DNA of 64,000 nucleotides, taken from the NCBI GenBank assembly GCA_964390635.1, contig CAYMIG010000005.1:148320-212319 (forward strand), read 5' to 3'. This document shows positions 9,952 through 39,723 of the stretch, in pieces. The notes below the pieces were generated by a model. It searched no databases, was not told the DNA's origin, and worked only from the letters and a program-made list of their open reading frames with translations. How positions within the stretch are numbered: position 1 is the stretch's first letter; every line of letters starts with the position of its first letter. A program made the translations under genes and the position numbers. The DNA is from an uncultured Vampirovibrionales bacterium (GTDB lineage Bacteria > Cyanobacteriota > Vampirovibrionia > Vampirovibrionales > Vampirovibrionaceae).

Positions 9952-11327
9952 GCCTGGCCTCCTTTCCGGGCGCCATAGCCCTGGAAGGTCTGGAAACTCT
10001 GCGGACGCAACAACGGCGCCTGCGTCAAGGGCAAAGCGCCGTAGCTGGAAGCGGATTGTGGCGGTTGTTGCTGGTGTCCGGCGGCGGTGCCAGCGCCATG
10101 GGCGGTGTTCGGGGCGGAGCCGGTATCTTTCAGCAGGCGGGTGGCATTGTAGGAATCGTGGTTTTGGGCCCAGAACGCCAGCTTGATGAGGTAGGCGCCG
10201 GCCAGCGCGGTGGTGCCCACGGCGATGAGGAACTTCTTGGCCGCGATCTTCTTGAACACGCCTTCGGCCACCTCGGCCAGCTTTTGGCCCACGCCACGCT
10301 CGGCCCAGACGGACTCGGCCAGGTCGCTCCAGCGTCGGATGTTCTTGAGCACGTGGCCAATGGGCTCGTGGGCGGCCTTGGAGGCATCGTCAAAGGCCAC
10401 GTGGATGTAGCCGGAGCGGTGCAAGGGGCGTTCCACGGCTTCGGTAAAACCGTTGCGGGCGTATTCGTAAGGCTTGAGTCGGTAATTCCGGTTGAAGCCG
10501 GTCAGCACTTCCTCGAACTGCTCGGCCAGCTGGCCCAGCAGCTTGTTCTTTTCCCGTCCGCTGGCGGTGTTGAATGTGGCATCCACGTAGCGGGCCGCCC
10601 AGTCGTCGATGTACTGGCGGTAGTTCTGCACGGCGTCGGTGCGCAGGTGCTCCGGCAGCATGTGCTTGGCATAGTCGGGATCCTGGAACATGCTGGCAAT
10701 GTATTTTTGCACGGCTTCCTGGTACTTGTTGGCGCCGATTTCGCCCACTTCCTGGCCCAACCCGGACTGGTTCAGGTGGGCCTGGAAACCGTGGGTCATT
10801 TCCTTCAGGTTGTGGTAGCCCAGCTCGGTGGCGGACTTGCCGAACATGCGGCGGGACACCGCGAAGATGATGGCCGGGATGGTCAGTACCCCGGGGCCGG
10901 TGGCAAACTCCCGCTTGGTCTCTTCGTTGAAGTTGACCCAGTTCAGGCCGCGGATGTTCTTGTGCAGCCAGATTCTGGCCTGATCCTTGAAGGGCAGGTT
11001 TTGCACCTCTTTATCGCCTGCGGTTTCGTACTTGATGCGACCGGTGGTCAGGGAGGTGCCCACCCGGGGCAGCCACATGGCGATGGCGTCCTGGGCCAGG
11101 AAGGCCCACACAAACACTTCGGTAATCTTTTGGAAGGTGGGAATGAGCTTTTCGGTGGCGCTTTGCAGGGCCTGGTTGCCGGCCCGCATGGCCACGTTGC
11201 CCAGGCCGCCGGAAAACCGGGGCGCCTGCGGATGCACCGGGAGGCTGGCGGCCACCGGGATACGGGGGGCGGCGCCTGCAAACTGGCGGGGGCGATGTGA
11301 CGCTGTTACATCCACTTGCGGAATCAT
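9948..11327 (-). CDS. hypothetical membrane protein, paralog family member B
   Basis: 459 aa; hydrophobic segments (VFVWAFLAQDAIAMWLP; GVLTIPAIIFAVSRRMFGK) and C-terminal TM (FLIAVGTTALAGAYLIKLAFWAQN); tail …LLRPQSFQTFQGYGARKGGQA. Confidence 0.6.
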   Translation of the reverse strand: MIPQVDVTASHRPRQFAGAAPRIPVAASLPVHPQAPRFSGGLGNVAMRAGNQALQSATEKLIPTFQKITEVFVWAFLAQDAIAMWLPRVGTSLTTGRIKYETAGDKEVQNLPFKDQARIWLHKNIRGLNWVNFNEETKREFATGPGVLTIPAIIFAVSRRMFGKSATELGYHNLKEMTHGFQAHLNQSGLGQEVGEIGANKYQEAVQKYIASMFQDPDYAKHMLPEHLRTDAVQNYRQYIDDWAARYVDATFNTASGREKNKLLGQLAEQFEEVLTGFNRNYRLKPYEYARNGFTEAVERPLHRSGYIHVAFDDASKAAHEPIGHVLKNIRRWSDLAESVWAERGVGQKLAEVAEGVFKKIAAKKFLIAVGTTALAGAYLIKLAFWAQNHDSYNATRLLKDTGSAPNTAHGAGTAAGHQQQPPQSASSYGALPLTQAPLLRPQSFQTFQGYGARKGGQA

Positions 11328-11678: not shown

Positions 11679-13112
11679 ATGCAACCCACGTTCCTCCCTC
11701 TACAGCAGCCTGTAATATCGCGCCGCGTGCAATTTGGCGGGCCTCTTGAAGCGCTCTCCAACGTCATTGGCGTGATTGACAGCAATCGCATCATTGAGTT
11801 GACCTCGACCGACATCATCGGCATGTGTTTCCCGAGGACGGCGATTGAGGCCAAAAAGCGCGGCCCGGATGCCGCCCGCGAAACCGCCATCCGCGAACTG
11901 AGCGGCCTGGTGGGCAACATGTTCCTGGTGGGCTGGTTCAGCAAGCTTTTCCTGAAGATGCTGGGCAACCGGGTGAACCGCTACAACCCGCATGGCATCC
12001 CCGCGTCGGCCTGGATGAACATCGAGAACATGCAGGCCTTTGGCAAGATTTACGAAGCCATCCTGCGCGATCCGGGAACCAAAAACGCCCAGCAGGCCCG
12101 GGCTAAATTCGTGCGCGCGGTGCTCTCAGGCCTGGAGTCCGCCGACAAGCACCTGGGCGCCAACGCCCTGCTGGATGCGGCCAAGGTGCTGGATGGCGAG
12201 GTGCGCGACAAGTACCTGCAAGAGATCCAGAAAAATGCCGCCGAGGGCCGCTTGCCCAAAGAAGTGCTGGAACGGCTGGCCGGCTTCTTCGATCTGCGGG
12301 ATTCCCGGGCCGCCGCCGATGTGGCGGGCACCGTCAACTTTAACCAGAAAGCCCGCGAGCTGGTTGCCGCCGCCGAAAAACACCACCAGCGCCAGGGGCT
12401 GGCCGGGGCCTTCGATGCGGCCCAGGCATTCGTCAAGACCCGCCTGCGCCTCAGCCTGGACGAGCTGCGCAGCGCTGAGGACGAATTTGCCCGGCTGGTG
12501 GATCGCGAGGCCCTGGGCGGCTACCTCAGCAAAGAAGTCAACCTGGTGCACAACGGCGAGGTGCTGACTGGCGGCAAGAGCCGCGATGCCATTCTGCGGC
12601 AGCTCAAGCACTTCCTGGAGCAGTACGTGGATCGTGCCGCCGAAGGCGCCGCCGGCAAGGGCTGGCAGGATGCGGTGCTCGAAAAACTGCTGGGCCAAAG
12701 CAAAAATACCGGCTTCCTGGCCCGGTTTGTCCCGCAAATTGACGACGGCCTGATGCAGGCTGCCCGCAAGTCCAAGTGGGCCTACACCTGGGTGCCGGTG
12801 CTGATGGCCATTTGCAGCTCCATTTCGGTGGCCTTCTACAACAACTGGCTGACCCGCAAGAAGATGGGCGGCAAGAACATTTCTCCCTACGAACTGGGCC
12901 TGGCCCAGAAGATGGGCAAGGCGGATGCCCTGATGGGTTCCCAGTCCGCCGTTCCAGCTGGCAAGCCGCAGGCCCAGACGGTGCCGGGCGTCTTTGTGAT
13001 GCCCACGGCGACCAATCCCGCTGCCCACGGCACGGGCCTGCGCCGTCCGCAGGGCGCGTTTGCCCAGTTCCAGAACGGACGTACCATGCATGCCGGAGGG
13101 CCTACCGCATGA
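11679..13112 (+). CDS. hypothetical membrane protein, paralog family member C
   Basis: 477 aa; LVGNMFLVGWFSKLFLKMLGNR mid segment, C-terminal TM (WAYTWVPVLMAICSSISVAFYNNWLTRKK), tail …LRRPQGAFAQFQNG…; start codon context weak, true start may lie downstream. Confidence 0.55.
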   Translation: MQPTFLPLQQPVISRRVQFGGPLEALSNVIGVIDSNRIIELTSTDIIGMCFPRTAIEAKKRGPDAARETAIRELSGLVGNMFLVGWFSKLFLKMLGNRVNRYNPHGIPASAWMNIENMQAFGKIYEAILRDPGTKNAQQARAKFVRAVLSGLESADKHLGANALLDAAKVLDGEVRDKYLQEIQKNAAEGRLPKEVLERLAGFFDLRDSRAAADVAGTVNFNQKARELVAAAEKHHQRQGLAGAFDAAQAFVKTRLRLSLDELRSAEDEFARLVDREALGGYLSKEVNLVHNGEVLTGGKSRDAILRQLKHFLEQYVDRAAEGAAGKGWQDAVLEKLLGQSKNTGFLARFVPQIDDGLMQAARKSKWAYTWVPVLMAICSSISVAFYNNWLTRKKMGGKNISPYELGLAQKMGKADALMGSQSAVPAGKPQAQTVPGVFVMPTATNPAAHGTGLRRPQGAFAQFQNGRTMHAGGPTA

Positions 13113-13932: not shown

Positions 13933-14877
13933 TTAACCGCCCGTACTGGACTTGGAGCCGCCCTTTTCCGCCAGCTTTTTCTGTCGGCGTCCGGAAAAAA
14001 ACAGCTCGCTCAGCCGCTTGCCGAAGTGGGGCTTTTGCAATATCTCCCCTTCCGTGGTGACCTGGTAGAGGCGGGCCAGCGTTTTGCGCAGTTCCTCGGC
14101 ATTGGGCACTTTTTCCAGCTTGCCGTCCTCCACCATCGAAATGCTGCCGGTTTCCTCGGAAATCACAATGCAGCGGCTGTCGGAAATCTCGGTCAGGCCG
14201 ATGGCCGCCCGGTGACGGGTGCCGTACTGCCAGCTTAGCTTGGGATCCTCGGTCAAGGGTAGCAGCACGCCGGCGGCCACAATGCGGTTTTCCGGGCTGA
14301 TGACCACCGCCCCGTCGTGCAGGGGGGTGTTGGGGTGGAAGATGGTCAGCAGCAGCTCTGTGCTGAGCTTGGCATCCAGGGCGGTGCCCACCTCCAGGTA
14401 GTCGCCCCCGTGGGTGGAGACCGTCTCCAGCACGATGAGCGCCCCGCGCTTTTGCTTGCTCAAAAAGTGCACCGCCTCCCCGATCTCATGAATCAGGTAC
14501 TCGGCCTTCTGCTCTTCGGAGCCCGCTGCCAGGGTGCCCAGGCCAAACAGCTCGCCCTGCCCCAGAAACAGCAGCATGCGCCGCAGCTCCGGCTGGAAAA
14601 TGACGATAAGCCCGATAAACAGGATCTGGATACTGGCCGCGAACACATCCTTCAGCATGGGCAGCTGGAACACCGAGGCCAGCGCCCACAGGCCCACAAA
14701 CATCAGCAGCATCACAAACAGCCCCTTGAGCAGCTGTTCGGCGTGGCTTTTGCGAATAAAGCGCACGTAGACGAAGTAGATGATGAACGTCAAAATGGCA
14801 ATCTGCACCGTCACCTTCAGCAAGGCAATCAGGTGCTCGTTTTGCAGCCATTCTTCCATGTTCCAGCCGGTCGGCAT
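13933..14877 (-). CDS. cdaA: diadenylate cyclase CdaA (c-di-AMP synthase), membrane-anchored
   Basis: 314 aa; 3 N-terminal TM helices, DAC domain motifs (…HDGAVVI…, …TRHRAAIGLTE…). Confidence 0.8.
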   Translation of the reverse strand: MPTGWNMEEWLQNEHLIALLKVTVQIAILTFIIYFVYVRFIRKSHAEQLLKGLFVMLLMFVGLWALASVFQLPMLKDVFAASIQILFIGLIVIFQPELRRMLLFLGQGELFGLGTLAAGSEEQKAEYLIHEIGEAVHFLSKQKRGALIVLETVSTHGGDYLEVGTALDAKLSTELLLTIFHPNTPLHDGAVVISPENRIVAAGVLLPLTEDPKLSWQYGTRHRAAIGLTEISDSRCIVISEETGSISMVEDGKLEKVPNAEELRKTLARLYQVTTEGEILQKPHFGKRLSELFFSGRRQKKLAEKGGSKSSTGG

Positions 14878-17562: not shown

Positions 17563-19566
17563 TCACCCTGCCCGATCGGCCATAAACGCCTGGCGCAGGG
17601 TAAAGATTTTCAGCCGGCTTTCTTTGCCGCGCACCTGCACGTCGCCCAGCTCCACCAGATCCGGGGCGCCGGCCATGGCCCGGGCGGTGTCCTCGCTGAT
17701 GATGAGCCGGGTCTGGAACTCCTTGGCCTGCTCCTGCAAGCGCACGCAGGTATTCACCGTATCGCCCACGGCGGTGTATTGCATGTTGGTGGCCGGGCCC
17801 AGCCAACCCACCACCGCCGGGCCGCTGTTGATGGAAATACCGATGTCCAGGTCGATGCCCTTGCTTTCCTTAAAGCGCCGGGCCAGCTCTCGCCCGGTGG
17901 CCAGGATGTCCCGGGCCGCATTCAGGGCCATGGCGCGGTGCTGCTCGCTGGGCAGGGGAGCCCCGAAAATAATCAGGATGCCGTCGGCCATGTACTTGTC
18001 CACCGTGCCGTAGTGGGCAAACACCACCTTGACCATCTCGGTGTAAAACTCGTTGAGCAGGTCAAACACCTCGGTGGGCTGCAACTGCTCCGATAAGGCC
18101 GTAAAGTTGCGCACGTCCACGAACATGGAAGTGACCTCCCGCTTCTGTCCGCCGGGCGTCAGCACGTCGGCCATCTTCTGGATTTCCAGGAACACGTCCG
18201 GGTCCACCAGCTGCATCAGGTTTTTTTCCATGGTGGCCAGCTGGCGCTCCTTGAAGAGGATGCGGAAGGTGCTGCCCGCCACGAAGGCCAGCACGATGAA
18301 CAGCTCCGGGGTCATCACGTCCAGCCACAGGCTTTTTTGGCTGAAGAACCAGTAGGCCAGCGAGAGATAAATAACCATGGTGCCCAGCGTGTACAGCAGG
18401 GTTTGCCCCAGGTGCTGGAAGCGCAGGCGCAGCAAAAGGGCCCCGGCCACCAGCACCAGCAGGATGAGGGCGTTCATCAGGCCGGGGGCCTTGCGTACCG
18501 ATTGCCCGTTCAGCAGGTTGTCGATGGCGGTGGCATGGATATCCGGCCCCAGGTGGCGCAGGGCCACCGGGGTGGGGCTGTAGTCGCGGTAAAACGTGGA
18601 GGAGGAACCGATGAGGGCGATTTTGCCTTTCAGCTCGGGCAGGTGGGCGTCTTTTTCCAGCACCCGCCACAGCGGGACGGCCAGGTGGCTGAGGCTGTAT
18701 TCGCCCTTGGGCACCGGCAGCAAGCGGTAATAGCGCATGTAAAAGGCGTCCCGCCCGCTCAGCGGAATCTGGATGCCCGTGGCGGGATCCCTTTCCGGGT
18801 AGAGCTTCAGCCGGGGGGCGGGCATGTCGTGGCGATCCACGTCCATGACCCAGGTGTCGCCCGGATGCGCGATGTTCAGGTATTCGTAAGCCGCCGCCAG
18901 CGACAGGGCCGGAAAAATGCCCGTCTGTCGGGCGCTGGCCTGCACCTTGTACACCGGCTTCAGCATGCGCACCGAGCCGTCGGCCTCCTGGCGGTTGCTG
19001 ACCACGCCCAGGTTCAGCCGGTAGTAATGGGGAATGTCCGTGTTCAGGTCGTTGCGCTCCCGGCCCCCGGTCTCGTTCATCACCAGCCCGGAAATTAGGT
19101 TGGAGAACTTTTTCATTTCCGTAAACACCGCCGCGTCCTCGGTCTCGTTGATGTTCAGGAAATGGCCGTCCAGTACCATCAGGGCGGGCTGCTGGGCGTT
19201 GAGGCGCTCGAAGATTTCCACGTAGGTCTTGCGGGGCCAGGGTACCGAGCCGAAGCGGGGTTTTAGCCGCTCGATGGACTCGTCGTCGATGAGCACCAGC
19301 ACCACCGGGCTGTCGGTGGCGGGCCGGGCCGACCAGCGCATAAAGTGATCGTAGAAGTAGGTTTCGGTCTGCTGGCCCAGTCGCCACAGCCCAACCACTG
19401 CCGCCAGGGCCAGCAGGGTGGGCAAAAGCCAGTTCAGCAGGTTTTTCAGCACGGGGTTTGCTTGTCCCTTATGCACGCTGTTTCTATCATAGCGGGGATT
19501 GCCCAGGGTGGCCATGTCAGGCAAGCCACGTCCCTCCAAATGCATGAGGGCCCCGGCATGCAGCAT
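17563..19566 (-). CDS. CHASE2-sensor class III adenylate/guanylate cyclase
   Basis: 667 aa; N-terminal TM, periplasmic CHASE2-like region, 3 TM helices, C-terminal cyclase domain (FVDVRNFTALSE…ADGILIIFGAP…TAVGDTVNTCVRLQ). Confidence 0.8.
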   Translation of the reverse strand: MLHAGALMHLEGRGLPDMATLGNPRYDRNSVHKGQANPVLKNLLNWLLPTLLALAAVVGLWRLGQQTETYFYDHFMRWSARPATDSPVVLVLIDDESIERLKPRFGSVPWPRKTYVEIFERLNAQQPALMVLDGHFLNINETEDAAVFTEMKKFSNLISGLVMNETGGRERNDLNTDIPHYYRLNLGVVSNRQEADGSVRMLKPVYKVQASARQTGIFPALSLAAAYEYLNIAHPGDTWVMDVDRHDMPAPRLKLYPERDPATGIQIPLSGRDAFYMRYYRLLPVPKGEYSLSHLAVPLWRVLEKDAHLPELKGKIALIGSSSTFYRDYSPTPVALRHLGPDIHATAIDNLLNGQSVRKAPGLMNALILLVLVAGALLLRLRFQHLGQTLLYTLGTMVIYLSLAYWFFSQKSLWLDVMTPELFIVLAFVAGSTFRILFKERQLATMEKNLMQLVDPDVFLEIQKMADVLTPGGQKREVTSMFVDVRNFTALSEQLQPTEVFDLLNEFYTEMVKVVFAHYGTVDKYMADGILIIFGAPLPSEQHRAMALNAARDILATGRELARRFKESKGIDLDIGISINSGPAVVGWLGPATNMQYTAVGDTVNTCVRLQEQAKEFQTRLIISEDTARAMAGAPDLVELGDVQVRGKESRLKIFTLRQAFMADRAG

Positions 19567-19699: not shown

Positions 19700-20005
19700 A
19701 TGGGAGATCTGAGTTTTAATCCGGCAGGGCGTCCAGAACTACTCAGCTTTGGCAACGTGGGCCGGAATACCAACACGGGTGCCCCCGCTTCCGGGTACGT
19801 GCCGCTAGCGGCGGGTACGCTGGGCTCGGGTGACAGCCTGGAGTTGACCAGCCTGGTGGTTCCGCAAACCGGCACCACCCCGGAAAACACCGATGTGCGC
19901 CTGGTGGTGAACAACGCGGTGGCCAACGATCCGCAGGGCCTGACCCTGAATCCCAGCGTGCGGGCCCTGTTGCTGGCGGCACCTGAGCAATTTCCGGCGG
20001 CCTAA
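19700..20005 (+). CDS. small Gly/Asn/Thr-rich hypothetical protein (MGDLSFN… N-terminus)
   Basis: 101 aa; AGAGGAG Shine-Dalgarno 8 nt upstream of ATG; sits in AT-rich islet; N-terminus resembles that of the 26822 acidic protein. Confidence 0.45.
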   Translation: MGDLSFNPAGRPELLSFGNVGRNTNTGAPASGYVPLAAGTLGSGDSLELTSLVVPQTGTTPENTDVRLVVNNAVANDPQGLTLNPSVRALLLAAPEQFPAA

Positions 20006-20263: not shown

Positions 20264-20524
20264 ATGGTTGATTTCAACAGAATTAATTTAAACGGGGTCA
20301 ATATAACCCCCAACGTGGCAGGAATTCGTTCTGCGGCGGCGGCGTCCACCTCGGGCGGCGGCAACGTGAACCGCACCGATTCCTTTGAGCGGTCCAACCT
20401 GTTTGCCGGCGAAGGGCTGAGCCATACCGTGGATTTTGGCGCCATTGCCAACATGTCGATGGCCGATGCCGCCAAGGCGTTGCCCGGGTCTTTCCAGGGC
20501 CTCAAGTTCCTGGCCAGCATCTAA
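20264..20524 (+). CDS. small Gly/Asn-rich hypothetical protein, tandem paralog 1 (MVDFNRINLNGV…FLASI)
   Basis: 86 aa from ATG at 20264 (GGAGAAGAGAGG upstream); conserved N- and C-terminal blocks shared with the 20756 ORF. Confidence 0.6.
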   Translation: MVDFNRINLNGVNITPNVAGIRSAAAASTSGGGNVNRTDSFERSNLFAGEGLSHTVDFGAIANMSMADAAKALPGSFQGLKFLASI

Positions 20525-20755: not shown

Positions 20756-21025
20756 ATGGTTGATTTTCGCAATGTCAACTTGAACGGGGTCGGTGGCATC
20801 AACCCGGCCAGTAGCGCGCCAGGCTTAGGGCAGGCAGGGTCTGCACCCGGTTTCAACCCCCTGAACCAGGGGGGCGTCGATGCCTTTACCCCCAGCAACG
20901 CCTTGTTTGCCGGCGGCGGGGGGCATGGCGTGGACTTCAACGCCATCGCCAACATGTCCCTGGAGGATTGTGCCAAGGCCCTTCCCAATTCCTTTGCGGG
21001 ATTGCAGTTTCTGGCCAACCTCTAA
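20756..21025 (+). CDS. small Gly/Asn-rich hypothetical protein, tandem paralog 2 (MVDFRNVNLNGV…FLANL)
   Basis: 89 aa from ATG at 20756 (GGAGAGAAG upstream); C-terminal VDFNAIANMSLEDCAKALPNSFAGLQFLANL vs VDFGAIANMSMADAAKALPGSFQGLKFLASI in paralog 1. Confidence 0.6.
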   Translation: MVDFRNVNLNGVGGINPASSAPGLGQAGSAPGFNPLNQGGVDAFTPSNALFAGGGGHGVDFNAIANMSLEDCAKALPNSFAGLQFLANL

Positions 21026-23350: not shown

Positions 23351-24013
23351 ATGCAAGCCATTCGCCCTAACCCTTTTTCGTCTTTACCGATCCACCGTCC
23401 TGCTTTTCAGGGCTGGTTCGGTGGGCTGGCCCGCCGCATGAGAAGTCAAACGGGTGATTCAGATACACTTGACCTACAGATCAAGGTGGGTCATCCTATT
23501 CCGTGCCCTCCGCCCGATGACATTGCCGCAAGAATCAATCTGGGTGAAACTGTCGAGGTGCATCCCAGTGAACTCGCTGCTGAAGTCAAGTTGGGGGATA
23601 CCACGGATGAGCGTATTGAAGCGAACCGGTTCATTGATCAGTGGATGCCGGAAATCGAAAAGACCCAGCGCTTTACCCGGTTTTCCCGTCAGCAGGTTAT
23701 CCAGGCCGTGGGCGAATATACCGGCTTGCGCATTCTGGATGTAGGTAACGTGACTGACTTGGAGCTGTCCTGGGTATTGAAACGGTTAGCCCTCAACCCG
23801 GAAACCGTGCCGCTCGAAACGAACACGGTAGTCATTGGGCATGGCCTTGGTCAAGGACGGCATTGGAGTTTTGTGGGTAGTGGGCAAAAGGTGGCAGATT
23901 ATATTGCCCAGCATGTGCCGCAAGGTGAAAAAGTTTGGGCGGTGGTTTGCGATGCGGATCGTGAACGATATTTCCATTTGGCCGAGGGAAAATTGGTGAC
24001 TTCAGGCACTTAG
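23351..24013 (+). CDS. hypothetical protein
   Basis: 220 aa ORF with coding-like GC3 bias, no recognisable motifs. Confidence 0.5.
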   Translation: MQAIRPNPFSSLPIHRPAFQGWFGGLARRMRSQTGDSDTLDLQIKVGHPIPCPPPDDIAARINLGETVEVHPSELAAEVKLGDTTDERIEANRFIDQWMPEIEKTQRFTRFSRQQVIQAVGEYTGLRILDVGNVTDLELSWVLKRLALNPETVPLETNTVVIGHGLGQGRHWSFVGSGQKVADYIAQHVPQGEKVWAVVCDADRERYFHLAEGKLVTSGT

Positions 24014-26651: not shown

Positions 26652-26821
26652 CGCCGCTTTTTTGCTGCCGGCCTTCTCTGGCCGAGCGGGGGTTTTGGCG
26701 GGCGCAGGCAATTTTACAGTACTGATTGTTTTTATTAGTTTAATTGGAGTACTTGTCCGGGTGAAGTGGGAGGTTTTGACCCTTGGCTTTGCCATGGACG
26801 GGAAAAGGATGGAGTGTAGAG

Positions 26822-29026
26822 ATGGGAGATTTCACGTTTAACAGCCAGGCGGCCATCCGGGCGGGCAACAATGGCAATGTGCCCATGGGGCAACCGTTTG
26901 CCCAGCCTTTCGGCGCGGATGACGATTATATCGACCTGACCGGCGCCACCAACGTGGAAGGCGACGTGATCAACGTGGAAGGGGATTTGATTATCGTGCA
27001 GAACGGCGGCGGGGGCTATCCGGCTGCGGGTGGGTACGGTGGCTATGCCGGGGGCGGGTATGCCTACCCGGCTGCCGGGGGAGGATACGGATTTCCCGCA
27101 TACGGCGGCGGCGGTGGCGGCGGCTTTATGATGCCCCAGCCCTCCAGCCATATGATGGGCGTACTGAACGACATTTATGCCATGATGGCCCCGGTTCTGG
27201 CCGGTTTGACCGAATACATGGCCCAGTTGCAGCAGGTGATTGCCGCGCAGAAAGCGGGCCAAACCAGTGGTAGTGGCAATCCCGGCGACAGCGGCGGCGA
27301 TCATGGCGATGCCGGGGATCATGGGGATCACGGCGATCATGGCGATGCCGGGGATCATGGGGATCACGGCGATCATGGCTCCCAGCCCACCTACCATACC
27401 AGCGGGGCCGACAACGAGACGGCCATCCAGGTGCTGGAAGAGCTACGCCGGCGCACCCGCAGCGATGCCGGCGGCAACTGGAGCGATGCGGAACTGCGGG
27501 ATGCCGTGCGTGACATTGCCCGCGAGCTGGATATTGACGAGGATGAGGTGGACGGGATCATCGACACCATCCGTGACAACCACGAGGCCCTCTCCGCCCT
27601 GGACGGCCATCCGGGCGACCTGAACGCGGATGAGATTGATAGCATCGTGGAACTGCTGGATCGGGGCTTCTCGCTGGAGCAGATCATTGAGGAAGGCAAG
27701 CATCTGGATGAAGGCCAGAGCACGACCCTGCTGGAGAACAACCGGCCCTTGCACTACGAGCACCAGGAGGAGAAGGACACCGTCGTTGATGCCCTGGAGT
27801 TTGCCATCAGCCGTCGCAACGTCGAGGATTTTGCCGGCGATGACGGCAAGTACAGCGCCGATGAGCTGAACGAGCTGGCCGACGAGCTGGAGTCGCAAGG
27901 CAAGCAAGAGGCCGCCGATAAGCTGCGCTACATTGCCGACCACCGCGACGAGTTCACCATGCTGGACGGCCATGACGGCGACCTGAACCGCGATGAGCTG
28001 CGCAACATCCTGGAGCTGGTGGATCAGGGTTTCACCCTCAGCTACATCGCCAAAGAGGGCCAACTGCTGAAGGAAGCCGGCGGCAACCGCAGCACCAACC
28101 TGGCCGCCATCGGCGAGGTGGGCTTCCCCGGTGCCGAGGGTAGCGGTCGCTCCGAGCATACCGACGAGGCGGATGATGCCGATCACGCCGACGAGGTGGA
28201 TGATGCCGACGACGTCGATCATGGCGACGACGTGGAGGAGACCGAAGAAACGGAAGAGACCGAAGAACCGGAAGATTCCGATCATGCCGACGAGGCCGAT
28301 GACAGCGAGGCCGAGGTGGCCGATCGGGCCATGGCCTTCCTGCTGGATCACGTGGATGACATCCCCTCGGATGGCTCCTACAATGACCAGGATCTGCGCC
28401 GGGCGGCCAACCAGGCGCGCCGGGACGGCATGGATGCGGAGGCCGAGTTTATCGAGCAGCTGGCCGATGAAAAAGACGCCCTGACCTACGTGACCGATGG
28501 TGAATCTGGCTTGACCGGAGACCTGAAGGACTTCGAGCTTCAGGATCTGCGCCGCCTGCTGGCCGATGGCTGGACCCTGGATCAGCTGGTGGAGGCTGGG
28601 GAGCAGGGCATTGCCCTGGGCGACGTGGAAACATCCGCCTTCCATACCGATCCCGAGCGCCAGGATCTGGAGGAACAGGCCATCCAATACCTGATCGACA
28701 ACGTGGACACCTATCCGTCGGATGGCTCCTACAACGGCGACGATTTCGACAAGGCCATCGAGGATGCGCCCCCGGAACTGATTCCGGTGCTGCGGCAAAT
28801 GAAGGAGCAGCGCGGCAACCTGACCTATATGGACGGCCAGTCGGGCGACCTGAACGAAAACGAGCTGCGGCAATTGCTGGAGCTGGTGCAGCATGGCTAC
28901 AAGCTGGACTTCTTGTCCGCCGCCGGTGAGCGTAACTATTGGGACGGCGTTGGTACCGGGTGGTTTGTCGGCGATTTGGGCGAAAAGCTGCTGGGTTACG
29001 GCGGCCACCAAACCGAGGCGTCCTGA
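26822..29026 (+). CDS. large highly acidic repeat protein (Gly/Tyr-rich block, (DHG)n, (ETE)n, four ~45-aa DGxxGDLNxDEL repeats), N-terminus MGDFTFN…
   Basis: 734 aa from ATG 26822 (GGAG 7 nt upstream); very high Asp/Glu content; internal repeats visible by eye. Confidence 0.7.
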   Translation: MGDFTFNSQAAIRAGNNGNVPMGQPFAQPFGADDDYIDLTGATNVEGDVINVEGDLIIVQNGGGGYPAAGGYGGYAGGGYAYPAAGGGYGFPAYGGGGGGGFMMPQPSSHMMGVLNDIYAMMAPVLAGLTEYMAQLQQVIAAQKAGQTSGSGNPGDSGGDHGDAGDHGDHGDHGDAGDHGDHGDHGSQPTYHTSGADNETAIQVLEELRRRTRSDAGGNWSDAELRDAVRDIARELDIDEDEVDGIIDTIRDNHEALSALDGHPGDLNADEIDSIVELLDRGFSLEQIIEEGKHLDEGQSTTLLENNRPLHYEHQEEKDTVVDALEFAISRRNVEDFAGDDGKYSADELNELADELESQGKQEAADKLRYIADHRDEFTMLDGHDGDLNRDELRNILELVDQGFTLSYIAKEGQLLKEAGGNRSTNLAAIGEVGFPGAEGSGRSEHTDEADDADHADEVDDADDVDHGDDVEETEETEETEEPEDSDHADEADDSEAEVADRAMAFLLDHVDDIPSDGSYNDQDLRRAANQARRDGMDAEAEFIEQLADEKDALTYVTDGESGLTGDLKDFELQDLRRLLADGWTLDQLVEAGEQGIALGDVETSAFHTDPERQDLEEQAIQYLIDNVDTYPSDGSYNGDDFDKAIEDAPPELIPVLRQMKEQRGNLTYMDGQSGDLNENELRQLLELVQHGYKLDFLSAAGERNYWDGVGTGWFVGDLGEKLLGYGGHQTEAS
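27296..27379 (+). repeat. 36-bp in-frame tandem repeat (2.3 copies) encoding GDHGDAGDHGDH
   Basis: ggcgatcatggcgatgccggggatcatggggatcac repeated exactly twice plus 12-nt partial third copy. Confidence 0.8.
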
Positions 29027-29250
29027 AGAGTAAGCCCTGCGGGCGCTGAAGAGTAAGGCAAATCAAAAAAACTGCCGGGATCGTTGATTCCGGCAGTTTT
29101 TTAATGGTTGTCAGCCCTTTTTTTTGGCTGTAGCATTATTATCGGCAGGTTTTCGCAAAACTTGAGCCCTGTTTCCCCAAATCCGAAGCGTCTTAAGATT
29201 TCGGGCCCGATTCCCCAAAGTGCCGTCCCGTCTTGTAAAGGAAGCCGCCC

Positions 29251-30237
29251 ATGAGCACCGCCACCATCCTGGCCGAAGGCAAAACCAAGATTCTGCGACC
29301 CGGTGACCGTCCCGACGAGGTGCGGGTGGAGTACAAAAACGCCGCCACCGCCTTTAATGCCCAAAAAGTGGCCGAAGTGCCCGGCAAGGGTGAACTGAAC
29401 GCCCAGATTTCCACCATCCTGTTTCAACTGCTGGAAGAGGCGGGCATTCCCACCTGCTTTCGGGGCCCGGGCAGCCATCCGGCTGAGCTGATTTACCAAA
29501 GGCTGGCCATGATCCCCCTGGAGGTGGTGGTGCGCAATTATGCTTACGGCAGCATCGTCAAGCGGTTCGGCTTTCAGGAGGGCATGCCCTTCCAAAAGCC
29601 CCTGGTGGAGTACTTCTACAAGTCCAGCGATGATCCCCAAATCGCCGGGGATCTGATTGCCGAAATGGGCCTGGTGCCGTCCACCACCTCGCTGGAGGCG
29701 GTAAAGCGCATGGCCTTGCAAATCAACGAGGTGTTCCTAGGCTTTTTCGAGCCCCGGGGCATCCGGGTGGCGGACTTCAAGCTGGAATTCGGCCTGGATG
29801 AAGGTGGCCACCTGAAGCTGGGCGATGAGCTGAGCCCGGACAACTTCCGGCTGCGGGACGCCCACACCGGGGCGGTGCTGGATAAGGACGTGTTCCGCCT
29901 GGATCTGGGCGATCTGGGCGAGGCCTACCGCAGCTTGCTGGCCCGCATGCGCCAGCCCGTGGCCAGCGTGCGCGGCGCCCACCGGACGGCGTACGAGGCC
30001 GAGGTGACCGTCACCAGCCGCAAGAATATTTTGAACCCCGAGAGCAAGGCCATTATGGAGGGCCTGCAAACCCTGGGCTACCAGTCGGTAGGCCAGTTGC
30101 ACGCCGGCAAGCGTTTTGTCATCCGCATCGAGGCGGAAACCATGGTGGAGGCCGAGCGCCAGGTGGCCCGCATTGCCGAAAACGTGCTCAGCAACCCGGT
30201 GATCGAAGATTTCCACTACACCATAAGGCTGGCCTAG
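29251..30237 (+). CDS. purC: SAICAR synthetase fused to PurS (PurC-PurS fusion)
   Basis: 328 aa single ORF; N-terminal ~240 aa PurC (…GKTKIL…LEVVVRNYAYGS…), C-terminal ~80 aa PurS (…EVTVTSRKNILNPESKAIMEGLQTLGY…LSNPVIEDFHYTI). Confidence 0.85.
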   Translation: MSTATILAEGKTKILRPGDRPDEVRVEYKNAATAFNAQKVAEVPGKGELNAQISTILFQLLEEAGIPTCFRGPGSHPAELIYQRLAMIPLEVVVRNYAYGSIVKRFGFQEGMPFQKPLVEYFYKSSDDPQIAGDLIAEMGLVPSTTSLEAVKRMALQINEVFLGFFEPRGIRVADFKLEFGLDEGGHLKLGDELSPDNFRLRDAHTGAVLDKDVFRLDLGDLGEAYRSLLARMRQPVASVRGAHRTAYEAEVTVTSRKNILNPESKAIMEGLQTLGYQSVGQLHAGKRFVIRIEAETMVEAERQVARIAENVLSNPVIEDFHYTIRLA

Positions 30238-30915
30238 ATGAAATTCGGCATCGTCGTATTCCCCGGTTCCAACTGCGAGCGTGACCTGCACGACGCCATC
30301 CGGCTCTACCTGAAGGAAGAAGCCGTGTACCTCTGGCATAACGACCCGGATTTGCAAGGCGTGGACTGCGTGCTGCTACCTGGCGGCTTCAGCTATGGCG
30401 ATTACCTGCGCTCGGGGGCGATTGCCCGCTTCTCCCCGGTTATGGAAAGCGTGCGGGCCTTTGCCGAGAAAGGTGGCCCGGTGCTGGGCATCTGCAACGG
30501 CTTCCAAATCCTGACCGAATCGCACCTGTTGCCCGGGGCCCTGGTGAAAAACGCCTCCCTGCAATTTCAGTGCGATCACGTGGCCCTGACCGTGGAGAAC
30601 AACCGCACCCCCTTTACCACGGCCTACGCCCCGGGCCAGCGCCTGCGGCTGCCCATTGCCCATGCCGAAGGCAACTATTATGCCGAACCGGAGGTGGTTA
30701 AACGCCTGGAAGACAACCACCAGGTGGTGTTCCGCTACGTGCAGGATGTGAACGGCTCGGTCAACCGCATTGCGGGCATCTGCAACGAGCGGGGCAACGT
30801 GGTGGGCATGATGCCCCACCCCGAACGCAACCTGTGGCAGGGCGAGAACTGGAACGCCGACGGCTGCGCGGTGTTCGATTCCATCCTGCGTTCGGCCCTG
30901 TCCGTGGCCCGCTAG
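30238..30915 (+). CDS. purQ: FGAM synthase glutamine amidotransferase subunit PurQ
   Basis: 225 aa; [16 protein letters not shown]…[10 protein letters not shown]…GICNGFQIL…. Confidence 0.9.
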
Positions 30916-31130
30916 GCCGCGTTCTCTGCTATAGTGGAAACAGCGATCGGGAGTCAGTCGTGGATCGACGTCAACGCATCTTTCTCTATGGGGTCATCCT
31001 GGGCCTGGCGGTCTTTTTCTTCATTTTCCACTTCATGAACGCCGCCTTCCGGGCCACCCATGGCGTGGAAGTGCATACCCCAGGCTCCCATTCCTCCCCA
31101 GGCCGTCCCTAGCCTTTTAACCGCAAGGCC

Positions 31131-32648
31131 TCAGGCCGGCGAGCCGGTGGTCAGGGTGAGGGCCGTTTCCACTCGTTGCAGCACGGTCTCTTTGCCCAAA
31201 ATGTACAGGGTCTTGGACAGATCCGCCCCGTGCACCCGGCCAGTCACCGCCGCCCGGATGGTCCACATTACGGTTTTGGTCTTGATGGGCTTCAGGCCGT
31301 CGGTAAAGGCCTTCAGCGCCGGGGCCACGCTTTCCGGCGACGAGAAATCCGCTTGTTGCACGAACTCCCGGAACCGGTGCAGCACGGTGGCGGGTTCTTC
31401 ACCGGTCAGTACCTCGCCCACCAGCTGGGCATCCAGAATCACGTTTTGCCCAAAGAAGTAACTGATGGCTTCCGGCAGCTCGCTGAGCACGGTGATAGGC
31501 TCCCGCACCGCCTCCAGCATCATCAGCAACTTGTCCTGGGGGTACAGGCCCAGATCGAAGTGGTGCAGGTAGGGCCGGGCCCGCTCCAGTAGCTCATCCA
31601 GCGGCAGCGCGCGGATGTACTTGCCGTTGATGAAGTTCAGCTTGTCCTTTTCAAAGATGGCGGCGCTGGGGTTGATGCGATCCAGGCTGAATTGCTCGGC
31701 AAAGTGGCTGAGGGGGGCCACCTCCTCGCCATCCGGGGGCGACCAGCCCAGCAAGGCAATGAAATTGCAGAAGGCTTCCGGCAGGTAGCCTTGGCGAATG
31801 TAGTCTGACACCGCCACGGCCCCGTGCCGCTTCGACAGTTTGCTGCGATCGGGGGCCAGGATCATGCTGACATGGGCAAACTCCGGGGCCGGCACCCCCA
31901 GGGCCTCGTACAGCAGGATTTGCCGGGGGGTGTTGGAGATGTGGTCTTCGCCCCGAATGACATGGGAAATGCGCATCAGGTGGTCATCCACCACCACCGC
32001 AAAGTTGTAGCTGGCGGTGCCGTCCGATTTCAGGATCACGAAATCGCTCATCAGCGCGCTGTCAAAGGACACCTCGCCCCGCACGTGATCCTGGAAGGTT
32101 ACTATGCCCCGATCTGGGGGAATGCGGAAGCGGATGGAGGCCGGGCGCTCGGTGCCGTCGGCCAGCTTCTGGGCGGCTAGCGCGGTGTGGGCGGCTTCGT
32201 CGCGGCAAGGATCCACAAAGGCCTCCTCGCCGGTCACCTGCTCCTTCAGGGCGTCCAGCTCGGCCTGGGTGTGGTAGCAGGGGTAGGCTTTGCCTTCGGC
32301 CAGCAGCTTGTGGGCCCAGTCCCGGTATAGGGACAGCCGTTCCGACTGGGAGTATGGGGCGCAAGGCCCGCCAATGTCCGGCCCTTCGTCCCAGTGCAGG
32401 TTGAGGGCCTTCAGGCTTTCGTAGATGTTGTGGGTGAATTCCGGCTTGGAGCGCTCCAGGTCGGTGTCTTCAATGCGCAGGATGAACTTTCCGCCATGCC
32501 GGCGGGCAAAGAGGTAGTTGAACAGGGCGGTACGGGCGGTGCCTACATGCAAAAAGCCGGTAGGGCTGGGGGCAATGCGGACGCGGACTTCGCTCACGAC
32601 GGGCCTCGATTCTCTGCGAACCGAACCAGCATAAGGCAAAGGCGCCAA
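31131..32648 (-). CDS. gltX: glutamyl-tRNA synthetase
   Basis: class I aaRS motifs (APSPTGFLHVG, KLSKR); true start probably internal GTG near 32597 (VSEVRVRIAPSPTG). Confidence 0.85.
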   Translation of the reverse strand: MAPLPYAGSVRRESRPVVSEVRVRIAPSPTGFLHVGTARTALFNYLFARRHGGKFILRIEDTDLERSKPEFTHNIYESLKALNLHWDEGPDIGGPCAPYSQSERLSLYRDWAHKLLAEGKAYPCYHTQAELDALKEQVTGEEAFVDPCRDEAAHTALAAQKLADGTERPASIRFRIPPDRGIVTFQDHVRGEVSFDSALMSDFVILKSDGTASYNFAVVVDDHLMRISHVIRGEDHISNTPRQILLYEALGVPAPEFAHVSMILAPDRSKLSKRHGAVAVSDYIRQGYLPEAFCNFIALLGWSPPDGEEVAPLSHFAEQFSLDRINPSAAIFEKDKLNFINGKYIRALPLDELLERARPYLHHFDLGLYPQDKLLMMLEAVREPITVLSELPEAISYFFGQNVILDAQLVGEVLTGEEPATVLHRFREFVQQADFSSPESVAPALKAFTDGLKPIKTKTVMWTIRAAVTGRVHGADLSKTLYILGKETVLQRVETALTLTTGSPA

Positions 32649-32711
32649 CCATTCAAGCCGCCACCCGGCCTTCGGGCGGGAAACGATGAGGGGGCCAAAA
32701 CCCTACCCGGC

Positions 32712-33674
32712 TTAGGTATTGGGCTTGACCACTTCCAGCTTGACGTTGCCCACGCCGGACAGGCCGATGGCGCTGGCCGCCCCTCTGGAGAGGTCGATAA
32801 TGCGGCCATGGGCGTATGGGCCCCGATCGGTGATTTTCACGATGCAGCTCTTGCGGGTGCGCTGGTTGGTGACTTTCACCAAGGTGCCGAAGGGCAGGGT
32901 GCGGTGGGCCGCAGTCAGGGCGTACTGGTTAAAGCGCGCCCCACTGGCGGTGCGGCGGCCATGGAAGATGCCGCCGTACCACGATGCCATGCCGGTCTGA
33001 ACTTGTCCGGTGGGCTGGTACTCGGCCAGCGGAAACAGATCGGGTAGATCTTTGGTGGTCAGCTCGGAGCCACCCAGGCTTTCCCGGATGCGGTTGGCCC
33101 ATACCAATGCCAGCTGGTCACGGGGAATGCCGGCGGCCATGGCATTGGTAGCGTCCACGGTGGTTAGCACCTCATCGCCCATTCGAATCACCACCAGGCT
33201 GCCTTTTTTGGCGGGTTTAATTTCTTCGGGGCCGTTGCCGTTTTGCAGGTAGCGCACCAGCCGCTCGCTCATGATCTGGGCGCGGGAGTAGGGCTCAATG
33301 CCCGCCACTTCCTTGCGAAAGCGCACCGCCTCCATGTCGTTGATGAACACGCTGGCCTCATCGCCGTCGGTTGCAGCCTGGATGCGCACGGGACGCTCCT
33401 CGCTCATGAAGAAGTTGTAGATCTCGGTATCATCGGGGGCATTGCCGGGCCCGTCCACGGGAGGCGCCTTCAGCGGGTTGGCCGGGATGGCGTCGCCCTG
33501 GGACGGCTGGTTCTGTTCCTCTCCCTTTTCAATGATGGAAGCCATCTGGGTGACTGGCTCTGCCTGGCTGGCCGTCATTTCGGCGAGTGCGTCGGGGAAT
33601 AGCCAGGTGATGATGGATCCGGTACCTAACAGGATGGCGGAAACCGCCATAATTGATAGGTGTTTAAAGGTCAT
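32712..33674 (-). CDS. RlpA-like (double-psi beta-barrel) lytic transglycosylase-related protein with N-terminal anchor
   Basis: start taken at ATG 33674 (MTFKHLSIMAVSAILLG…); C-terminal DPBB motif (ASWYGG…GRRTASGARF…TAAHRTLPFGTLVKVTN…). Confidence 0.7.
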   Translation of the reverse strand: MTFKHLSIMAVSAILLGTGSIITWLFPDALAEMTASQAEPVTQMASIIEKGEEQNQPSQGDAIPANPLKAPPVDGPGNAPDDTEIYNFFMSEERPVRIQAATDGDEASVFINDMEAVRFRKEVAGIEPYSRAQIMSERLVRYLQNGNGPEEIKPAKKGSLVVIRMGDEVLTTVDATNAMAAGIPRDQLALVWANRIRESLGGSELTTKDLPDLFPLAEYQPTGQVQTGMASWYGGIFHGRRTASGARFNQYALTAAHRTLPFGTLVKVTNQRTRKSCIVKITDRGPYAHGRIIDLSRGAASAIGLSGVGNVKLEVVKPNT

Positions 33675-38535: not shown

Positions 38536-39723
38536 TTAGGTTGCCAGCCCCCCGGGTTTTTCGATGGGCAGCACCACCTGGAACCGGCTGCCCTGGTTGG
38601 GGGTGCTTTCCACGGTGATGGTGCCCCCGTGCTTGTCCACAATCTGCTTGGAAAGGTAAAGCCCCAGCCCGGTGCCGCTGACCATCACCTCGGGGGGCTT
38701 GTTTTCGTCAAACAGGAAGTTCAGCACCTGCGGCTTGATGCCCACCCCGTCATCCTGCACGGTAATGGCCACCTGATCCTCCCACCAGTCGGTGGTGACC
38801 GCAATGCGGCCATTCTCCGGGGTATGGGTCAGGGCGTTCTGGATGAGGTTGTTGATGACGCGGTGGATTTCCAGGGGATCCACCCACACCGGGGGCAGCA
38901 GTTCGTCCAGTTCCAGGTCGATGCGCACGTTCTTGCTTTGGGCGGTGTACATAATCAGGTTGGCCACTTCGGCCCGGATCAGCTCGTTCAGGTTGATTTC
39001 CTCGCGGCGCAGGGCCACCCGCCCGGACTGGTACAGGTAGGACTTCAGCATGTTCTCAATCAGGCTGGCCATGTAGCGGTTGGACTCCACCATGGCATCC
39101 AGCACCTCGGCCTGCTCGGGGGTGGGGTTGCCAAAGTAGCCCTTCTTCAGCAACTCCAGCACCTGGAATTCCGCCGCCACCGGGGTCTTCAAATCGTGCA
39201 CCAGGCCCATAATCTCATCCCGGCTGGTGTTGGGTCGCTGGGCGGGGTCGGGCTCGTTCCCGCCTCCCGGGGCAGCGGCGTGCTGGGTTTTTTCCTTCAC
39301 GAACTTGTCGGTGGTCTGGTTCAGCCGGTTGTTCAGCCCCTTGAAGAGAATCTTTTGCAGGGGGGACATGAACTGCAAATCCGGTTTGATGGTTTCCTCA
39401 AACAAAATGTCCACGGTCACCTCGTTCATGGCGATGACGCTGGCGTTGCGCGTGGCATCCTTGCTGAGCAGGTACATTTCCCCGAACACTTCACCCGGGC
39501 CCAGTTCCTGGATGGGCACCAGCGTGCCGGGGCCTTCTTTGCGGCACACCAGCACCTTGCCGGAGCGAACCACGTAGCTCCGATCACCGCGGGTGCCCTG
39601 CTCAATAATCAGATCGCCCTTGCCGTAATGCTTGATCGGCATGCCTGCTCTTTCCGATTGCTTGCGAAAATCCCTGAAGCGGTGACCACTAGAAAAAGCG
39701 CTATCGAAATCATCTATCGGCAC
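38536..39723 (-). CDS. cyclic-nucleotide-binding domain histidine kinase
   Basis: N-terminal cNMP-binding fold (…GEVFGEMYLL…), H-box (GLVHDLKTPVAA), HATPase_c (…DDGVGI…GTGLGLYLSKQIV…); alternative start ATG at 39642. Confidence 0.75.
   Translation of the reverse strand: MPIDDFDSAFSSGHRFRDFRKQSERAGMPIKHYGKGDLIIEQGTRGDRSYVVRSGKVLVCRKEGPGTLVPIQELGPGEVFGEMYLLSKDATRNASVIAMNEVTVDILFEETIKPDLQFMSPLQKILFKGLNNRLNQTTDKFVKEKTQHAAAPGGGNEPDPAQRPNTSRDEIMGLVHDLKTPVAAEFQVLELLKKGYFGNPTPEQAEVLDAMVESNRYMASLIENMLKSYLYQSGRVALRREEINLNELIRAEVANLIMYTAQSKNVRIDLELDELLPPVWVDPLEIHRVINNLIQNALTHTPENGRIAVTTDWWEDQVAITVQDDGVGIKPQVLNFLFDENKPPEVMVSGTGLGLYLSKQIVDKHGGTITVESTPNQGSRFQVVLPIEKPGGLAT

Follow-up and report, generated by a model that had tools for sequence, protein, structure and literature searches.

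Within a 64,000-nucleotide stretch of contig CAYMIG010000005.1 from an uncultured Vampirovibrionales bacterium (hereafter the window, meaning the whole of the DNA that was analysed) lies a complete forward-strand gene for an extremely acidic, repetitive protein of 734 amino acids (aa). Its open reading frame (ORF) runs from an ATG at 26822 to a stop at 29026, with an alternative TTG-extended start at 26783 in the ORF list. An earlier interpretation of this DNA from its letters alone (the sequence-only reading) had described a likely secreted or surface cation-binding protein with several kinds of repeat, and as a whole it is partly supported by the analysis given here. The gene looks real, because its GC content by codon position (GC123; 0.72/0.39/0.76) is that of other window genes, because a ribosome-binding-site-like AAGGATGGAG, itself preceded by an AT-rich stretch at 26716–26760, stands before the ATG, and because the MGD start recurs in homologs of the protein. 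A 522-aa antisense ‘shadow’ ORF (27443–29011, − strand) overlaps most of the gene; the GC123 pattern and the homologs favour the + strand, and the antisense frame is probably an artefact of GC-rich, Asp/Glu-codon-rich sequence. The product has 99 Asp, 71 Glu, 95 Gly (12.9%), 45 Lys plus Arg and no Cys residues, and its pI of 4.05 and net charge of −125 agree with the extreme acidity reported before. The Gly/Tyr, (DHG)n and (ETE)n blocks of that report are likewise present. The coordinates of the gene and of its parts are collected in Table 1.

The folded part of the protein consists of four copies of one repeat. The sequence-only reading had counted four repeats of ~45 aa; the count holds, and the true unit is ~95–100 aa long, as was first seen by comparison with the homolog P0002. 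Besides the L-D-G-H-P-G-D-L-N-x-x-E-L loop, each unit has an upstream Asp/Gly loop, DIPSDGSYNxDD, which had been missed, so that the protein carries eight loops in total. The four repeats are far beyond chance: an independent profile, built from 16 repeats of other proteins only, found copies at aa 197–294, 320–415, 500–595 and 614–704 with 72–88 bits each and expectation values (E) of 2e-24 to 2e-29; of 1000 shuffled versions of the protein, none scored above 14 bits. The copies are arranged as A-B, acidic linker, A-B. By identities and in a neighbour-joining tree, R3 groups with the first repeats of P0005, P0006 and P0013.

Table 1. Parts of the 734-aa gene and its product, in window coordinates (pLDDT, predicted local distance difference test; pTM, predicted template modelling score)
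Feature	Position (nt)	Residues (aa)	Strand	Basis or remark
Ribosome-binding-site-like AAGGATGGAG	26805–26814		+	7 nt 5' of ATG, read from sequence
Coding sequence, complete, 734 aa + stop	26822–29026	1–734	+	ORF list, coding-type GC123, homologs
N-terminal motif MGDFTFN	26822–26842		+	MGDLAFG in P0005, MGDFAFG in P0006 and MGDLSFN in the ORF at 19700 alike
Predicted-disordered N-terminal region	26822–27145	1–108	+	AlphaFold2 of aa 1–445, pLDDT <50 over aa 1–115; alignment with P0005, P0006, P0008
Gly/Tyr block	27005–27124	62–101	+	Within the disordered N-terminal region
Long amphipathic Met/Leu/Gln-rich helix	27149–27259	110–146	+	DSSP; pLDDT 48–76
Disordered Gly/Asp/His linker with (G-D-H/A)10	27263–27406	148–195	+	AlphaFold2, DNA repeat
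R1, A-type, degenerate first loop (SDAGGNWSDAEL)	27404–27709	195–296	+	72.0 bits, E 2e-24; pLDDT ~77–88
R2, B-type	27767–28069	316–416	+	71.9 bits; pLDDT 85–98
Poly-acidic linker	28160–28309	447–496	+	30 of 50 residues Asp or Glu; ETEETEETEE core
R3, A-type	28310–28609	497–596	+	77.9 bits; neighbour-joining tree, identities
R4, B-type, DTYPSDGSYN signature	28649–28936	610–705	+	87.9 bits; pLDDT 94.4, pTM 0.86
Gly/Trp-containing C-terminal tail	28937–29023	706–734	+	Not conserved in family

AlphaFold2, given an alignment of 20 repeats, predicted R4 with high confidence as six helices (residues 2–17, 30–39, 42–53, 55–61, 70–81 and 86–95 of the unit), with two-residue beta bridges at 27–28 and 68–69 that join the two conserved loops. 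In this model the unit is a pair of helix-loop-helix motifs connected by a loop-to-loop antiparallel beta bridge, an arrangement that resembles a paired EF-hand to which one inserted helix and a helical hairpin at the C-terminus have been added. R1 and R2 fold as R4 does in a model of aa 1–445. A canonical EF loop has 12 residues, with ligands at positions 1, 3, 5, 9 and 12 and Gly at position 6 (PMC9132961). We set the register of the two loops by the beta bridges and counted residues over 20 repeats, which gave the consensus x-I-P-S-D-G-S-Y-N-x-D-D for loop 1 and L-D-G-x-x-G-D-L-N-x-x-E for loop 2. Both loops conform to the EF pattern at position 6 (Gly in 19/20 and 20/20 repeats for loops 1 and 2, respectively), position 8 (aromatic, 20/20; Leu, 19/20), position 9 (Asn, 16/20 and 14/20) and position 12 (Asp/Glu, 20/20; Glu, 19/20). 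Position 5 conforms in loop 1 (Asp, 19/20) and is variable in loop 2, which has Asp at positions 2 (19/20) and 7 (17/20), where loop 1 has no conserved Asp. At position 1, loop 1 varies and loop 2 has Leu; at position 3, loop 1 has Pro (16/20) and loop 2 has Gly (19/20). By these counts the loops are degenerate rather than canonical EF loops.

Structural comparison of the predicted domain leaned towards the EF-hand proteins. In Foldseek searches of the PDB, the top matches of a single domain were mostly EF-hand proteins (S100A13, the calcium-binding domain of CDPK, sarcoplasmic Ca-binding protein, S100Z, centrin and NCS-1), and calcyphosine, calbindin D28K and secretagogin were among the top matches of a two-domain model. 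The best evidence of EF-hand descent lies within the family itself. At locus L025, beside the gene for the three-repeat protein P0007, is one for a 437-aa paralog that the domain profile matches from end to end (E 1.3e-8); at the place aligned to DIPSDGSYNxDD this paralog has a canonical loop, DTDQNGVLDDNE (D-T-D-Q-N-G-V-L-D-D-N-E). The extra repeat of P0007 has D-I-D-E-D-G and weak matches to Pfam EF-hand models. We regard the domain as resembling an EF-hand pair and as a probable descendant of EF-hands, but its formal membership of that superfamily is not demonstrated. Searches of Pfam, NCBIfam and PDB sequences returned nothing significant for the whole protein, the profile or single units; a profile match to a well-characterised domain was looked for and none was found. 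Sub-threshold or compositional matches of the whole protein to HTH_7, EF-hand_6, HxsA4 and collagen-like peptides were set aside, as was a match of the profile to CorA among PDB sequences (E 0.068), a chance match to a ‘GHxGD’ stretch. The description ‘EF-hand/dockerin-like but not canonical’ in the sequence-only reading is a fair one; its EF-hand half gains from the fold, the Foldseek lists, the loop positions and the paralog loop, with no sequence or structure comparison reaching significance, and the dockerin half found no counterpart: no dockerin model was matched by the whole protein at E up to 10 or by the 20 units at E up to 1.

To define the family, we ran an exhaustive HMMER search with the repeat profile over 1.84 billion representative proteins, which returned 23 matches at E ≤ 1e-3 and 13 at E ≤ 1e-10; about 12 representatives are convincing. 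Homologs with a variable number of repeats, which the sequence-only reading had proposed to look for, were found: P0013, P0019 and P0023 have one unit, most members have two, P0007 has three and the 734-aa protein has four. All clusters of the family at 90% identity are singletons, and only P0010 carries a name in any source, ‘hypothetical protein [Candidatus Melainabacteria bacterium]’. A reference-genome scan with the 734-aa protein found no match. Word-index homolog searches were largely uninformative, since the full-length query was saturated by low-complexity words and searches with the A1 profile and with aa 497–734 missed even the parent protein. The ~95-aa domain is thus undescribed, and it defines a new, very rare EF-hand-like family in an uncultured lineage, with no Pfam, NCBIfam or PDB counterpart.

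Outside the repeats the protein is mostly low-complexity sequence. Its N-terminal module (N-module) is predicted to be disordered, with a strand-like segment ‘GDVINVEGDLIIVQNG’, up to the helix at aa 110–146, which is the sole ordered element of the module and has equivalents in P0005, P0006, P0008 and P0002. P0005, P0006 and P0008 share the plan of this module with the 734-aa protein: an MGD-type start, ‘GDTTIIII.GDDVN.GG’, a Gly-rich tract and the helix ‘FLxxLNxxxxQxxAGLQxFxxQI’. A profile made from the N-module recovered the four sequences it was trained on and nothing else, neither the ORF at 19700 nor the L025 proteins. The Gly/Tyr and DHG blocks are specific to the 734-aa protein, because its homologs carry Pro/Thr- or Glu/Thr-rich linkers in their place; on this comparison they are best read as lineage-specific low-complexity linkers and not as the functional core. 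The (DHG)n block (aa ~158–186), which had been proposed as a metal-binding site, is present as described. It is encoded by a perfect 36-bp tandem repeat of 2.4 copies (27295–27379), and because that DNA repeat is perfect the block reads as a recent expansion; its absence from the homologs also speaks against a conserved site. All matches to HxsA4 and to collagen-like Scl adhesins fall on the (GDH)n low-complexity stretch (aa 128–196) and were rejected, at 33.7 bits vs 55, 23.6 vs 325 and 18.4 vs 400 (scores vs NCBIfam cutoffs). A collagen-like triple helix for (GDH)10 was also rejected, as the stretch is too short, lacks Pro and is absent from homologs. The sequence L027 (Logan SRR12997673) is 100% identical to window 27350–33237; it is an independent assembly of the same organism and adds no variation. 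It breaks exactly inside the DHG tandem repeat, an assembly hazard, and the copy number in the window needs some caution.

The gene’s position is shared with family members in a relative. On scaffold 7603 (L002) of metagenome ERZ19026152, the genes for P0005 (440 aa) and P0006 (413 aa) stand one behind the other, and purC-purS, purQ, gltX and a DPBB gene follow immediately downstream, in the order found in the window. On scaffold 1943 (L024) of the same metagenome, the window order upstream of the 26822 gene recurs: a CHASE2 cyclase, three small ORFs, an M17 peptidase, UbiD and a GerMN fragment lead up to P0008, which lies at the very end of the scaffold. In place of the single four-repeat gene of the window, the relative thus has two two-repeat genes in tandem, and probably a third, if the two scaffolds adjoin, as we infer. 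The two halves of the 734-aa protein are each colinear with a whole A-B pair, the first half (R1R2) is 25% identical to the second and 29–32% identical to other family proteins, and the acidic linker sits before R3, as one does directly before repeat A in P0005. From the tandem paralogs at the syntenic slot, the colinear halves, the identities and the linker position, it is probable that the gene arose by fusion of two neighbouring old two-repeat paralogs, with loss of the second N-module. The direction is not proven, and fission in the relative is the alternative. A segment after R2, ‘NRSTNLAAIGEVGFPG’, which matches the end of P0002, was considered as a relic C-terminus and rejected, as a similar ‘STLL...PG[FY]’ follows every repeat, internal ones too.

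Several features of the family and of the locus bear on where the protein acts. Two family members, P0009 and P0013, carry the domain fused to LysM, a peptidoglycan-binding module, which scores above the Pfam threshold in both and also in a neighbour of similar build at L025. The distant single-domain homologs P0019 and P0023 begin with a Lys/Arg-rich segment followed by a hydrophobic helix and then the domain, which by the positive-inside rule we read as N-in with the domain outside. A GerMN gene upstream and an RlpA-type DPBB gene downstream are envelope-related; the immediate neighbours (purC-purS, purQ, gltX) are housekeeping genes. The cell is diderm, on the evidence of a heptosyltransferase and of a KpsF that adjoins P0002, and Melainabacteria are diderm with lipopolysaccharide, with flagella inferred as ancestral (PMC4040986). 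The window also holds, at 532–4573 on the − strand, a flagellar-type operon for a type III export gate (fliN/sctQ-like, fliO, fliP, fliQ and fliR), with FliP scoring 232.5 bits against a flagellar equivalog cutoff of 217.45. Type III substrates use disordered N-terminal signals, and this makes the gate a candidate route for the protein. The LysM fusions, the N-in anchored homologs and the gate lend indirect support to the earlier proposal of a secreted or surface cation-binding protein, which is plausible.

Taken together, these data describe a lineage-restricted, modular, polyanionic protein whose anatomy is well supported: ~190 N-terminal residues, predicted to be disordered save for one amphipathic helix, are followed by four ~95-aa six-helix domains. 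We propose that it is a high-capacity binder of divalent cations, mainly Ca2+, or a Ca2+-dependent scaffold, of the cell envelope or exterior, and give this reading a probability of about one half. Cations would be bound by the eight loops, with their Asp, Asn and Glu residues, and by the poly-Asp/Glu and Asp/His linkers, and the protein would act as a cation buffer of high capacity and probably low-to-moderate affinity, or as a scaffold that depends on Ca2+. Its site of action would most likely lie outside the cytoplasm, whether in the periplasm, in the envelope or as a secreted protein, and export would proceed via the disordered N-module and not a Sec/Tat signal peptide, with the flagellar-type type III apparatus as one candidate route.

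A number of results weigh against this proposal. No Foldseek match in the PDB was significant (best E 0.57 and 0.08, with TM-scores of ~0.4). The best Pfam EF-hand match was to EF-hand_6, with E 0.033 and 14.4 bits vs a cutoff of 25, only 1 of the 20 repeat units matched an EF-hand model (E 0.07), and the repeat profiles A1 and A2 found no EF-hand protein among PDB sequences. Comparison by hhalign with a small alignment of classical EF pairs placed loop 2 on a calmodulin loop, with a probability of 3.6%. The loops could be purely structural, because EF positions 1 and 3 are without ligand residues in both. Neither a signal peptide nor a transmembrane segment is seen in any core family member, so that a cytoplasmic location is possible, and the genomic contexts are not conserved in the more distant members. 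The export gate is flagellar in type and lies 22 kb from the gene, with housekeeping genes between, and its link to the 734-aa protein is circumstantial.

In a different account of the repeats, they form a helical interaction or scaffold module that binds no metal, mediating protein–protein or protein–polymer contacts, with the loops as tight turns, as in pseudo-EF-hands, and the acidic linkers as entropic spacers. The failure of all EF-hand sequence tests, TM-scores below 0.5, the ligand-free positions 1 and 3 and weak matches of the C-terminal half of the unit to helical binding modules (HTH_7, UBA_7, STI1 DP) are all consistent with such a module. We nevertheless consider it unlikely, given that the residues that would be Ca2+ ligands (Asp at 5, Asn at 9, Asp/Glu at 12) are near-invariant, that loop 2 has the extra Asp residues at positions 2 and 7, and that a fully canonical loop occupies this site in a paralog; so acidic a protein would in any event favour the association of cations.

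The second account keeps the cations and moves the protein inside the cell, as a cytoplasmic Ca2+ buffer or sensor like the cyanobacterial CSE and CcbP or the actinobacterial CabD and calerythrin, whose acidic loops and linkers would act on Ca2+ inside the cell. A crude hydropathy scan found no signal peptide or transmembrane segment in the 734-aa protein, where the highest 19-residue Kyte–Doolittle mean, 1.4, falls in an amphipathic stretch, and neither this protein nor the core family has a lipobox. These results, the housekeeping genes next to it and the existence of cytoplasmic bacterial EF-hand proteins (PMC9132961; CSE in PMC7065334) argue for it. The fusions of the domain to LysM, the two membrane-anchored homologs that appear to place it outside, and a net charge and long disordered Gly-rich regions unusual for a cytoplasmic sensor argue the other way, and we regard a cytoplasmic role as a minor possibility.

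Less probable still is that the protein is a harpin-like type III secretion substrate that acts on another cell or on the cell surface, with the EF-like repeats as its cargo. Harpins are glycine-rich, cysteine-free and acidic (PMC12854069), and by this definition the Gly content, the lack of Cys and the pI of the 734-aa protein are harpin hallmarks. The disordered N-terminus, the export gate in the window and the L025 cluster of similarly built Gly/Met-rich proteins with different C-terminal domains fit the same picture. That cluster (L025 3215–5998, + strand) is a run of Gly/Gln/Met-rich proteins without signal peptides beside P0007, with Met-rich helices (e.g. QMLPQLMGTLTMMMGAMTMIFGMMTQMLL) and C-terminal domains that vary from one copy of the new domain with the canonical EF loop to LysM and (GGA)n repeats. 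Against it, the gate looks flagellar, with FliO present, FliP above the flagellar cutoff and a flagellar-operon gene order; genes for an injectisome needle or a translocon are not seen; Pfam and NCBIfam gave no match to a harpin family; the N-module profile misses the L025 proteins and the 19700 ORF; and harpins are defined by their activity on plants. The harpin account is doubtful, and the harpin-like features are only a resemblance. A related and equally speculative idea is that the N-module is a portable export or assembly module by which Melainabacteria-type bacteria bring signal-peptide-less proteins with interchangeable C-terminal cargo (EF-like repeats, LysM, canonical EF-hand) out of the cytoplasm, possibly via the flagellar-type type III apparatus; if true, this would be a harpin-like class of substrates in the non-photosynthetic sister group of Cyanobacteria.

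The last alternative, a non-functional gene (a spurious or decaying ORF of low-complexity repeats), can appeal to the ~40% of the protein that is low-complexity or predicted disordered, to the overlapping antisense ORF and to the lack of any terminator-like site found for the gene, and we discount it in view of the coding-type GC123 and ribosome-binding site, the four intact domain copies conserved in ~12 divergent proteins from independent assemblies, the high-confidence fold prediction and the syntenic position in the relative.

Other parts of the window touch these subjects. The 101-aa ORF at 19700 shares MGD[LF][ST]FN with the 734-aa protein, and in a six-frame translation of the window the motif occurs at only these two ORF starts. 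The resemblance noted in the sequence-only reading is therefore real (5 of 7 residues identical; pairwise E 0.063) and ends after residue 7; the ortholog of the ORF in L024 (E 3e-8) starts with MGNGSAGFN. The two proteins may share an N-terminal signal. That the N-module is homologous to the 19700 ORF or the L025 proteins was considered and is not shown; the likeness comes down to a 7-residue motif and composition. The ORF is the first of three small conserved ORFs without a family match (19700–20005, 20264–20524 and 20756–21025, + strand), the second and third of which are paralogs (MVDF[NR]..NLNG ... VDF[GN]AIANMS[ML].D.AKALP.SF.GL.FLA); their orthologs in L024 lie at 2780–3136, 3370–3624 and 3922–4221, between the CHASE2 cyclase and the M17 peptidase. 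Downstream of the gene, purC and purS are fused (29251–30237, + strand; 328 aa, SAICAR synthetase plus PurS) and are followed by purQ; the fusion is also present in L002, and its relatives in the reference-genome scan were all distant, the best being a full-length match of 38% identity in an NC10 metagenome-assembled genome.

In the export-gate operon, which runs past the 5' end of the window, the FliN/SctQ-like protein is 514 aa long with an acidic C-terminal tail, and FliQ is 169 aa long, including a C-terminal extension of ~80 aa. Three adjacent proteins of 404–477 aa without Pfam or NCBIfam matches (8737–9951, − strand; 9948–11327, − strand; 11679–13112, + strand) have a hydrophobic segment near the C-terminus and an [SA]F.[QT]FQ-type ending, and may form a paralogous family. 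A 220-aa ORF at 23351–24013 (+ strand), matches no family and has a third-position GC of 0.54, vs ~0.8 in the genes around it; it may have been acquired recently or may not be a real gene. The window is also rich in second-messenger genes (13933–14877, 17563–19566 and 38536–39723, all − strand), encoding a diadenylate cyclase (DAC domain), a CHASE2-adenylate/guanylate cyclase and a cNMP-binding histidine kinase.

If the proposed cation binding holds, the family adds a new and very rare branch to the EF-hand-like cation-binding domains, in a host lineage, probably Melainabacteria, whose cell-envelope biology is almost unknown. Should they bind metal, loops that carry Pro at position 3 or have the 11-residue D-G-x-x-G-D-L-N-x-x-E geometry would widen the range of helix-loop-helix metal sites; should they not, the domain would be one more orphan helical repeat in an uncultured lineage. 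The family is also a clean case of domain-number evolution, with one to four units per protein and tandem paralogs vs a fused gene at one syntenic locus, and it raises the question of how LysM- and EF-like proteins without signal peptides leave the cytoplasm in these bacteria.

Among known systems, the harpins (HrpN, HrpZ, Hpa1) resemble the 734-aa protein in their Gly-rich, acidic, Cys-free composition, the lack of a signal peptide, Met/Leu-rich amphipathic helices beside Gly runs and a genome that encodes a type III export apparatus. They differ in having no sequence homology to it and no folded EF-like repeat domains; the type III genes here look flagellar, and the organism is not a known plant pathogen. 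High-capacity acidic Ca2+ binders such as calsequestrin, CcbP and the RTX-type substrates of type I secretion combine a pI of ~4 with little or no Cys and a large number of carboxylate sites of low affinity. The 734-aa protein shares their extreme acidity and scarcity of Cys, whereas their folds and motifs are unrelated: it has neither GGxGxDxUx nonapeptides nor thioredoxin-like domains. The conserved element of the family is N-terminal and not C-terminal, which argues against a type I C-terminal signal. Protein S of Myxococcus xanthus offers a possible parallel as a multi-domain, Ca2+-binding protein without a signal peptide that works on the cell surface, in Ca2+-dependent assembly of the spore coat; it has a beta-gamma-crystallin fold and no homology to the 734-aa protein.

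Type I dockerins, with their ‘F-hand’ motifs, are unlike the new domain in size (~70 aa and three helices vs ~95 aa and six helices) and in the lack of any dockerin model match and of a cohesin partner or cellulosome context here. They are like it in having a duplicated Asp/Asn/Gly-rich loop followed by a helix in a small domain, in that position 12 is often Asp, and in a known context that is extracellular. The EF-hand pairs (calmodulin lobes, S100 and sarcoplasmic Ca-binding proteins; bacterial EfhP, CasA, CabD and cyanobacterial CSE) have four helices, whereas each unit here has six, with the inserted helix and C-terminal hairpin; Pro stands at position 3 of loop 1, the effective length of loop 2 is 11 residues (D-G-x-x-G-D-L-N-x-x-E), and the units sit in a 734-aa polyanion with long disordered regions. 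As modelled, the domain resembles those pairs in its two helix-loop-helix motifs and the antiparallel bridge between the loops, and positions 6, 8, 9 and 12 of both loops are filled as in an EF-hand, by Gly, a hydrophobic residue, Asn and an acidic residue, respectively.

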